From the NCBI RefSeq assembly GCF_030384885.1, contig NZ_CP128613.1: a DNA stretch of 64,000 nucleotides, one strand, 5' to 3'. The stretch's first letter is position 1. Each line of letters opens with the position of its first letter. Position numbers: made by a program. This document shows positions 14,501-17,500 of this stretch, in pieces. Source of the stretch: Escherichia coli. Its GTDB lineage: Bacteria; Pseudomonadota; Gammaproteobacteria; Enterobacterales; Enterobacteriaceae.

Positions 14501-17500
14501 TCAACGGTTGCGTAATTAAGGGACACAGCCTAGTGTTATGTTTTACAGTAACACGCCGAGGCGTGTTGGCTGATTAGAACTGGTAGACTAAGCCCACAGC
14601 AACGATATCATCGGTAGCGATGCCGTTTGCTTCGTAGAAGTCATCATCGTTGTCCAGCAGGTTAATTTTGTAATCAACATAGGTGGACATATTTTTGTTG
14701 AAGTAGTAGGTCGCACCGACTTCAACGTATTTAACCAGATCTTTGTTAGTGTAACGCGGGTCGCCGTTGCCGTCATGAGCCCAGCCGCCTAAATCCTTAC
14801 CTTTAGATTGCAGGTAAGCGATGGACGGGCGCAGGCCGAAGTCGAACTGATACTGAGCAACAACTTCAAAGTTTTGGGTTTTGTTAGCGATGGCTGATCT
14901 TGATTCACCATTATCAAACTCGCCACCACCATATGGGGTCATATTGCGAGTTTCAGCGTACATAGCTGCTAAATACACATTATTAGCATCATATTTTGCA
15001 CCAACAGTCCATGCTTCAGCGGTTTCACCACCAGCATTTCTGTTGCTATGGTTACGATCATTTAAACCAACTCCAACCTGGCGATCTGAGCGATCAGAGT
15101 TTGAATATGCAGCACCCAGACTTAAACCGAAGTCGAAGTCGTAGGATGTAGACATACCGAAACCATCACCATTTTCTTTGGAAAGGCTACGGCCATCACC
15201 ACTACCGGAACCTTCCTGCCCGAAGGGGCCACCACTTTCATTATTACCCTGATATTGCAGAGCAAAGTTCAGACCATCAACCTGACCAAAGAAGCCATTG
15301 TTACGGTAGGTTGCAACGCCGTTGGTACGACCGTTCATGAAATTGTCGGCACCAGCATAGGTATCACCACCAAATTCTGGCAGCATATCGGTCCATGCTT
15401 CGATATCATATACGACACCGTAGTTACGACCATAGTCGAAAGTACCATTCTGACCAAAACCTAAACCTGCGAATGCCAGACGGGTAGCAGAGTTATCGCC
15501 ATCGCCTTCTGTGCCATTTGCCTGCAGGTTGTATTCCCACTGACCGTAACCAGTGAATTGATCAGCGATCTGAGTTTCACCTTTGAAACCGATACGAGCA
15601 TATGACATATCGCCATCAGCGCCCGAGTTGTCAGAGAAGTAGTGCAGACCTGCTACTTTTCCGTAGAAATCCAGTTTATTACCATCTTTATTATAGACTT
15701 CAGCCGCATTTGCTGCGCCAGCAACTAATAACGCCGGGACCAGCATTGCCAGAACTTTTCTTTTCATTATGTATTCCCTTGTGATTATAATCTTCATGAA
15801 TATATCAATAAGTGCCGTTATCCAAAAAAAAGCACATTTGGATACTATTCTATGAAGTTCATTTTATTTTAAGGATTACATGTAACAAATGTATTTAAAA
15901 GATTTCAAAATGTTTCCAATCTATTTAATATAATTCAGAATTATGAATTCTAGATATATACATTCATGAAAATTATGAATATATATCAATATGTTATGAG
16001 TTGATTGAAAAGATAGGAAGTGTCAATGATTTTTGCGCCAGACGGCCTATGTGATCGCGCGCACATTAATGAAGGCATAAAAAAAGCCGGCATCATGCCG
16101 GCCCAAAAAATATAAACAAGACGATAAAAGGCTAATAACGGGGTTATCATGACACAGAAATCTAAAAAGGTATAATTGTATTCAGTGCTAATGTATTTTT
16201 TGGGTGAATTAATAAAACCATTATCCAAGATAAAAATAAATCTTTATTGCTGTTTTTCCGGTAATTATTGCCGTTGCGCAAAAACTATCTATTTGCTCAA
16301 AAAATGATTGAGTCTTGACTGACTCATCCAATGTGGAAAAATGTGACTTTTATCACATAATAGTACTAAGTTTGAATTTTCCGGGTTATCTCAAAATGGA
16401 ATACGGTTCGACAAAGATGGAAGAGAGACTCTCTCGCAGCCCTGGCGGCAAATTGGCTTTGTGGGCTTTCTATACATGGTGTGGCTATTTCGTCTGGGCA
16501 ATGGCGCGATACATCTGGGTGATGAGCCGGATCCCCGATGCCCCCGTGTCGGGATTTGAAAGTGATTTAGGATCTACTGCGGGGAAGTGGTTAGGAGCAT
16601 TGGTCGGATTTCTGTTTATGGCCCTGGTTGGTGCCTTGCTAGGCGGCATTGCCTGGTACACCCGACCTCGTCCCGCACGTAGCAGACGCTATGAATAAAA
16701 ACTGCTAAGGTTGCGACTCTTTGGCAACGGAGCGCGTATGGATTTACAACACTGGCAGGCACAGTTCGAAAACTGGTTGAAAAACCATCATCAACATCAG
16801 GACGCGGCACATGACCTGTGTCATTTTCGCCGCGTCTGGGCTACGGCACAGAAACTAGCGGCAGATGACGACGTTGATATGCTGGTGATTTTAACCGCCT
16901 GTTATTTTCACGATATCGTGAGCCTGGCGAAAAATCATCCGCAACGGCAGCGTTCTTCAATACTGGCAGCAGAAGAGACGCGTCGCCTGCTGCGTGAAGA
17001 ATTCGCGCAATTTCCAGAGGAGAAAATTGAGGCTGTTTGCCATGCCATTGCCGCACACAGTTTTAGCGCGCAAATTGCCCCTTTAACGGTGGAAGCTAAA
17101 ATCGTACAGGATGCGGATCGGCTGGAAGCTCTGGGGGCGATTGGCCTGGCGCGTGTGTTTGCCGTTTCGGGGGCGTTGGGCGTGGCATTGTTTGATGGCG
17201 AAGATCCGTTCGCGCAGCATCGCCCACTTGATGATAAACGTTACGCGCTGGATCATTTTCAGACTAAGTTGCTGAAGCTACCGCACACCATGCAAACCAT
17301 AAAAGGCAAACAACTGGCGCAGTACAACGCGCAATTTTTAGTCGAGTTTATGGCGAAGCTCAGTGCCGAGCTGGCGGGAGAGAATGAAGGTATCGATCAC
17401 AAAGTGATTGATACGTTTTCACCGGTTGGCTGAGCGCGTGGCCCTAAATGATGGTAATTATGTTAACCTGTCGACCATCTCAGATGGCCGGTTAAATCTA

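Follow-up and report, generated by a model that had tools for sequence, protein, structure and literature searches.

An intact yedS porin gene between rseX and hchA in an Escherichia coli chromosome

Introduction

In Escherichia coli K-12 the porin gene yedS, which lies between the small RNA gene rseX and hchA, is annotated as a pseudogene, and the same locus in other strains raises the question of whether it holds an additional general porin that is intact and maintained. We addressed this question for one E. coli chromosome, using a window of 64,000 nucleotides (contig NZ_CP128613.1 of assembly GCF_030384885.1) in which a long reading frame for an OmpC/OmpF-type protein occupies this position. 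Such a frame could be a genuine yedS, the OmpC of the strain under another guise, a recent import, or a gene that is open but silent, and these readings are weighed below. Intact yedS outside K-12 is common and has already been reported, and the present case is a correct re-discovery. Warner et al. 2013 (Antimicrob Agents Chemother 57:1935; PMC3623324) are cited for a mode of carbapenem resistance involving an active yedS porin gene in a clinical isolate, which is the same gene at the same locus, intact and in a non-K-12 background.

Results and Discussion

The reading frame is complete

The gene comprises 1194 nt, made up of 397 codons and a TAA stop (Table 1). The six-frame list of open reading frames contains one long minus-strand frame over it, and a scan of the coding sequence for internal stops or frameshifts found none. 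The chance of a frame of this length staying open is (61/64)^397, or about 5e-9. The listed frame extends upstream of the annotated start, and we place the real start of yedS at 15767 (MKRKVLAM...) because it is preceded by the AAGGGA ribosome-binding site and because RefSeq uses the same start in an identical genome. That genome is E. coli 2013C-4282 (NZ_CP027579.1), to which the DNA of the window is a 100% match; its intact coding sequence, likewise 100% identical, encodes protein WP_000824399.1.

Table 1. Features in and around yedS, as positions in the window; the ribosome-binding site, the CRP-like palindrome and the stem-loop were read directly from the DNA
Feature	Position	Strand	Remarks
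Insertion relative to K-12, between yedS 3' end and hchA	9665..14522	.	4.86 kb, bounded by IS remnants
GC-rich stem-loop AACACGCC-nn-GGCGTGTT	14550..14567	-	7 nt past yedS stop; no U-tract
yedS coding sequence, intact	14574..15767	-	397 aa precursor, 376 aa mature general porin
Long open frame over yedS	14574..15797	-	six-frame list
Signal peptide	15705..15767	-	21 residues; aligned with K-12 OmpC, OmpF, OmpN and PhoE precursors
AT-rich spacer and 5' leader	15768..16078	-	311 nt, 27.7% GC; rseX terminator to yedS start
Ribosome-binding site AAGGGA	15775..15780	-	about 8 nt 5' of yedS ATG
Sigma-70-like match	15888..15861		weak, 9/12
CRP-like palindrome TGTGATCGCGCGCACA	16050..16065	.	putative
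rseX sRNA gene	16079..16168	-	Rfam RF01401, 99.8 bits (gathering 50), E 8e-14
Terminator-like hairpin of rseX	16104..16084		rseX's own

Orthology with K-12 yedS and the K-12 lesions

The surroundings of the gene are those of K-12, with hprS and hchA on one side and rseX, drpB (yedR), yedJ, dcm and vsr on the other; neighbour annotation was taken from the identical genome and from K-12 MG1655. The orthologous stretch in MG1655 is 1193 nt long and annotated as pseudogene yedS (b4496), and it is collinear with the window gene at 94.2% DNA identity with a single 1-nt gap. Synteny and this level of identity identify the window gene, on comparative grounds, as the yedS orthologue. The K-12 pseudogene also has the same signal-peptide region and the same proximal upstream region, the ~170 nt nearest the ATG, ribosome-binding site included, being 100% identical between the two.

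Only two differences disable the K-12 copy: codon 162 reads TAG instead of CAG (nt 484), and one nucleotide is missing at nt 663. Together they cut the frame into three, in agreement with the three pseudogene fragments named in the initial annotation; current RefSeq has a single pseudogene, b4496, earlier b1964 (formerly b1964-b1966). The yedS of strain YZ22MPE54 differs from that of K-12 by 1 nt, with the deletion present and the TAG absent, and therefore the K-12 frameshift preceded the nonsense codon. By this comparison K-12 yedS was lost in two steps, a 1-nt deletion followed by a nonsense codon. The central claim of the initial annotation, that the window carries yedS intact at 14574-15767, is confirmed as a single uninterrupted 397-codon frame, and alignment to K-12 yedS revealed no overlooked frameshift or stop in the window copy. 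Loss of yedS in K-12 is specific to its lineage, and other strains should not inherit the pseudogene annotation from it.

Differences from K-12 are unevenly spread, with 52 of the 70 substitutions falling within nt 100-500. This clustering suggests that yedS carries a recombination mosaic relative to K-12.

YedS as a general porin distinct from OmpC

The predicted protein has the features of a complete OmpC/OmpF-type porin that were claimed for it from the start, namely a signal peptide, a conserved N-terminus and a terminal Phe, and the family profiles agree. The Pfam Porin_1 profile matches residues 27-397 with 480 bits over profile positions 1-337 of 337, and among NCBIfam models the top match is the OmpC-subfamily model (541 bits, cutoff 484). 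Scores lie under the equivalog cutoffs of the NCBIfam models for OmpF (469 bits vs 583) and PhoE (444 bits vs 599). Among solved structures the best match is OmpK37 of Klebsiella pneumoniae (PDB 6v78, E 1e-146), which is full-length, with the alignment covering OmpK37 residues 3-356 of 356; OmpK36 and OmpC follow. Amino-acid identity to the K-12 paralogues is 71% for OmpN, 68% for OmpC, 63% for OmpF and 62% for PhoE, and YedS is therefore a paralogue distinct from these K-12 porins.

Cleavage of the signal peptide is predicted after ANA and before AEVYNK. YedS has the A-x-A motif followed by mature AE(V/I)YNKDGNK that was used to recognize Sec signal peptides of this type, and the mature porin chains in the PDB begin to align at YedS residue 21/22. 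All six constriction residues (K16, R42, R82, R132, D113 and E117 in OmpF numbering) are conserved, as is the loop-3 motif PEFGG with both glycines, the longer PEFGGD being evident in the alignment. The C-terminus reads ...GLVYQF, and its terminal Phe is invariant among the 14 aligned porins (14/14). An AlphaFold model built from the 14-sequence alignment has low confidence (mean pLDDT 58) and shows 16 long strands plus a short N-terminal piece, with the low-confidence segments falling on loops. We took only rough limits of strands and loops from this model, and the 16-strand topology that we propose for YedS is based chiefly on its end-to-end homology to porins of solved structure.

Alignment with OmpC, OmpF and PhoE, which had been proposed as a check, places YedS in a common family with them, at 62-68% identity and with the constriction residues, PEFGG, the type of signal peptide and the C-terminal Phe shared by all, whereas the locus of yedS differs from those of ompC, ompF and phoE. 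The closest likeness is to the OmpN/OmpK37 type, as OmpN is the nearest paralogue and OmpK37 the best solved structure. Long surface loops and poor expression in laboratory culture characterize these porins. YedS differs from OmpN in its longer loops L5, L6 and L7, the precursors being 397 and 377 aa long. The two genes also differ in locus, although both adjoin an sRNA gene (micC at ompN, rseX at yedS).

The RefSeq record complicates this identification, as PGAP/RefSeq names the gene ompC and its product "porin OmpC". If that name were right, the gene would simply be the OmpC of the strain and no extra porin would be present, a reading with which the best NCBIfam match agrees. However, that model is of the "subfamily" type and not an equivalog, the identity to K-12 OmpC (b2215) is only 68% with OmpN closer, and the K-12 orthologue at the same position is named yedS. 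The locus is also wrong for ompC, since yedS lies between rseX and hchA, whereas K-12 ompC stands beside micF-rcsD about 277 kb away. Small RNA pairing points the same way. We compared sRNA seed regions with the 75 nt around initiation (-45..+30) against shuffled sequences, and the positive controls behaved as expected for MicF-ompF (z -5.7), MicC-ompC (z -4.4) and RseX-ompC (z -2.5). On the yedS leader over the same interval the seeds paired no better than with shuffles (MicF z +0.98, MicC z -0.95, RseX z +0.25); the MicC seed thus pairs with the ompC leader and not with that of yedS, and we propose no direct sRNA control of yedS. RNAduplex runs with whole sRNAs against -100..+45 were uninformative, as even the known MicF-ompF pair reached merely z -1.7. 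That the window gene is the strain's OmpC is therefore rejected as highly improbable, and the RefSeq label is misleading for yedS.

Another name in circulation is that of Salmonella OmpS1. OmpS1 is silenced by H-NS, and dcm and yedJ are close to its gene in Salmonella. The name "ompS1" is given to yedS in one paper (PMC2731931), and one database homologue is labelled "outer membrane protein S1"; the likeness is one of names.

The downstream island

The main structural difference from K-12 lies downstream of yedS. In a BLAST search with the K-12 yedS-hchA spacer, nt 1-51 aligned to 14573-14523 and nt 85-591 to 9664-9161, with a low-GC island carrying remnants of IS5- and IS4-family elements inserted between them. 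The island starts 52 nt past the yedS stop and leaves the gene untouched; it is the gene's downstream boundary in the present strain and no part of the porin gene. A 465-aa open reading frame within it had no match in Pfam, NCBIfam or PADLOC. The 51 nt between the stop and the island align to K-12 at 84% and contain the stem-loop of Table 1, a possible weak terminator that was not called by the terminator scan.

With mobile-element remnants this close, intact yedS might be a recent horizontal import that arrived together with the island rather than an ancestral gene. The island is low in GC and rare, being covered to at least 80% in only 14 of 5426 genomes; among the six next-best yedS matches (at least 99% identity), three carry 80-100% of it, and the clustered, mosaic-like differences from K-12 at nt 100-500 would also be compatible with import. 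Against this, the gene sits in the exact K-12 slot with both flanks conserved, through the identical upstream ~170 nt on one side and the alignable 51 nt past the stop on the other, and intact alleles free of IS elements are common. Strain 06-00048, which encodes an identical YedS, lacks the island, and hchA follows its yedS after about 590 nt. We consequently reject arrival of yedS with the island, which we regard as very unlikely; the conserved flanks and the island-free intact alleles indicate that the island was inserted later, beside an existing yedS. Homologous recombination inside the gene is likely, but it amounts to allele exchange and not to acquisition of a new gene.

Selection, spread and repeated loss

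Comparison with strain 06-00048 gives the clearest view of selection on the protein. The two genes differ at 35 nt, and all 35 differences are synonymous (dS 0.146, dN 0). With about 22% of the sites in yedS being synonymous, such a result would have a chance probability of roughly 1e-23 on a rough estimate. Values of dN/dS are 0.023 against Ecol_545 and 0.072 against CUPS04. These comparisons indicate that yedS is under strong purifying selection, and selection and homology together suggest that it is functional. Within the class of alleles to which the K-12 and window genes belong, variable columns make up 50-100% of loops L4-L7, 14% of the strands, 5% of loop 3 and 0% of the periplasmic turns, as is usual for porins exposed at the cell surface.

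There are 899 public contigs with exactly this protein, and intact relatives of 395/397 aa number in the thousands in E. coli and Shigella, some of which databases list as "outer membrane protein yedS", "S1" or "N". When we inspected the slot in 16 genomes, the porin gene was intact in 11 and broken in five: K-12 MG1655 and a K-12-like O16:H48 strain, YZ22MPE54, O157:H7 FRIK2069 (which has a 1-nt deletion of its own) and MB51 (with an IS1 insertion). By these lesions, several lineages, among them K-12, O157:H7 FRIK2069 and MB51, have lost yedS independently, and the gene is therefore dispensable in some niches.

Upstream region and expression

As in K-12, rseX lies upstream of yedS on the same strand. 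Sigma-70-like sites in the yedS upstream region were no more frequent than in shuffled sequences (6 vs 5.0 +/- 2.5), and a promoter was not located there. The putative CRP-like palindrome aligns to K-12 site 2033766, for which a Footprint-seq preprint reports an in-vitro CRP footprint for yedS (PMC12871828).

The AT-richness of the spacer brings up the most serious alternative, in which yedS, though intact, is cryptic: with its transcription silenced by H-NS too recently for the frame to have decayed, it would in practice contribute nothing to the outer membrane. OmpN, OmpS1 and OmpS2, which are close relatives of YedS, are regarded as "quiescent" porins. Beside the low GC content of the spacer, this alternative has in its favour that the gene's loss is tolerated in several lineages and that H-NS and StpA are reported to repress the adjoining rseX (PMC8313858). 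However, 35 of 35 synonymous differences at the dS observed call for selection on the protein over a long time, and hence for expression in some natural condition, and within-class variation gathers in the surface loops, as in proteins exposed to the outside. In K-12 the transcript can be measured and is regulated: on a microarray, yedS ("ompS1") was repressed 2.5-fold upon sigma-E induction, together with ompC, ompF, ompN and phoE (PMC2731931). Finally, an active yedS porin gene is reported for the clinical isolate of Warner et al. Complete silence thus seems improbable to us. Since the spacer has a GC content of 28% and the neighbouring rseX is reportedly repressed by H-NS, expression of yedS is probably low or conditional, as for a quiescent, H-NS-silenced porin, and it may be almost silent in laboratory conditions.

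We are confident that the window gene is an intact and selectively maintained yedS allele that encodes a fifth chromosomal general-diffusion porin beside OmpC, OmpF, PhoE and OmpN.

Proposed function of YedS

By analogy with the porin family, the YedS precursor would be exported by the Sec pathway and cleaved after ANA, and BAM would insert the protein into the outer membrane with the C-terminal ...VYQF as the recognition signal. YedS would then assemble as trimers of 16-stranded beta-barrels. Loop 3 (PEFGG, D106 and E110), facing K16, R37, R75 and R126 (all in mature numbering), would form a size- and charge-selective constriction, and the pore would be expected to pass small hydrophilic solutes, beta-lactams included. 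The long and variable loops L4-L7 would be the parts that phages, colicins and antibodies meet. The contribution of YedS would be greatest after loss of OmpC or OmpF or once silencing has been lifted.

An extra general porin alters both passage across the outer membrane and the surface seen by phages, colicins and antibodies. The initial annotation had named changed permeability as a possible consequence, and a precedent exists in the carbapenem resistance for which Warner et al. are cited. After loss of OmpC and OmpF, a remaining YedS pore could preserve susceptibility to carbapenems, and repression or loss of YedS could complete resistance, as the title of Warner et al. 2013 implies.

A polymorphic porin slot

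At least four classes of porin alleles, from 352 to 404 aa in length, occupy the position between rseX and hchA in different E. coli. Besides the K-12/window class, they include the porins of EC5502 (387 aa), 2018-10-1CC (357 aa) and Nissle 1917 (352 aa). Their amino-acid identity to the window protein and to one another is 59-73%, so that the classes diverge as much as OmpC from OmpF, while the signal peptide is identical in all of them (10/10 alleles sampled at the slot). Counting complete genomes with a megablast match to at least 80% of the query, among 5426, we found the K-12/window class in 1660 (~31%), the EC5502 class in 681, the 2018-10-1CC class in 2565 and the Nissle 1917 class in 1865; added together, these counts exceed the ~4880 genomes with any match, which presumably reflects cross-matching between the last two classes.

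Divergent classes at one site, an identical 5' end and a protein that is frozen within its class (35/35 synonymous differences) together raise the possibility that the slot is a porin cassette locus, kept up by selection that is balancing or driven by phages or immunity. We offer this only tentatively and consider it doubtful at present. In such a locus, homologous recombination anchored in the identical 5' end, which encodes the signal peptide, could replace one allele by another. The literature searched, outside of which most subscription-journal papers fall, contained no systematic description of a cassette locus here, and one may exist. The yedS-yedR intergenic region has already been put to use as a host-source marker.

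Allelic diversity at the yedS slot

Four or more classes of porin allele, with proteins of 352, 357, 387, and 392-404 aa, are found at the chromosomal site between rseX and hchA, and the class shared by K-12 and the window occupies this site in ~31% of complete genomes. Protein identity among the classes compared (Table) is only 59-73%, and despite this their signal peptide is identical. Within the window's own class, the 397-aa product of yedS in strain 06-00048 is identical to that of the window at every residue, and the DNA of the two genes differs at 35 sites (dS of 0.146, dN of 0). 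Synonymous divergence between this pair is unusually deep, with the amino acids unchanged even in the surface loops.

Table. Features of the window and yedS-slot copies in excerpts of other E. coli genomes (L-numbers)
Feature	Position	Strand	Remarks
Insertion relative to K-12	9665-14522		4.86 kb, between yedS and hchA
ORF within the insertion	10806-12203	+	465 aa
yedS	14574-15767	-	compared with the other classes
CRP-like palindrome	16050-16065		TGTGATCGCGCGCACA; just 3' of rseX terminator
rseX, Hfq-binding sRNA gene	16079-16168	-	Rfam, 99.8 bits
Other porin classes	L009:2501-3559, L010:2501-3574, L011:2501-3664		
06-00048 yedS	L014:701-1894		same protein as window
Broken yedS copies	L003:4552-5744, L016:701-1893, L008:2501-3687, L012:2501-4337		

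Repeated loss of yedS

The broken copies show that yedS has been inactivated several times, independently. In the K-12 lineage, the 1-nt deletion preceded the nonsense codon, and the yedS of strain YZ22MPE54 represents a one-lesion intermediate of this lineage. The O157:H7 strain FRIK2069 carries a 1-nt deletion differing from that of K-12, and the gene in MB51 is interrupted by an IS1 insertion.

Flanking regions

Immediately downstream of rseX, yedS lies on the same strand as this sRNA gene, an arrangement resembling that of other K-12 porin genes that adjoin an sRNA gene, namely ompC-micF and ompN-micC. Predicted pairing of RseX with the yedS initiation region was not above chance. The CRP-like palindrome aligns to a K-12 site that PMC12871828 includes among its in-vitro CRP footprints and assigns to yedS. 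On the other side, the insertion has a low core GC content (32-42%), and is bordered by remnants of IS5-family and IS4-family transposases. Of 5426 complete E. coli genomes, only 14 contain it at ≥80% coverage. Its 465-aa ORF had no match in Pfam, NCBIfam, or PADLOC.

Gene naming and plasmid matches

The RefSeq (PGAP) annotation labels the corresponding gene of strain 2013C-4282 (C6996_RS02470, NZ_CP027579.1) “ompC / porin OmpC”, because its best match is a subfamily-level NCBIfam model. This name is misleading for a yedS-locus gene with 68% identity to OmpC. Plasmids account for 33 of the 4946 places in E. coli that match part of the yedS query, and related porin sequence is therefore present on some E. 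coli plasmids.
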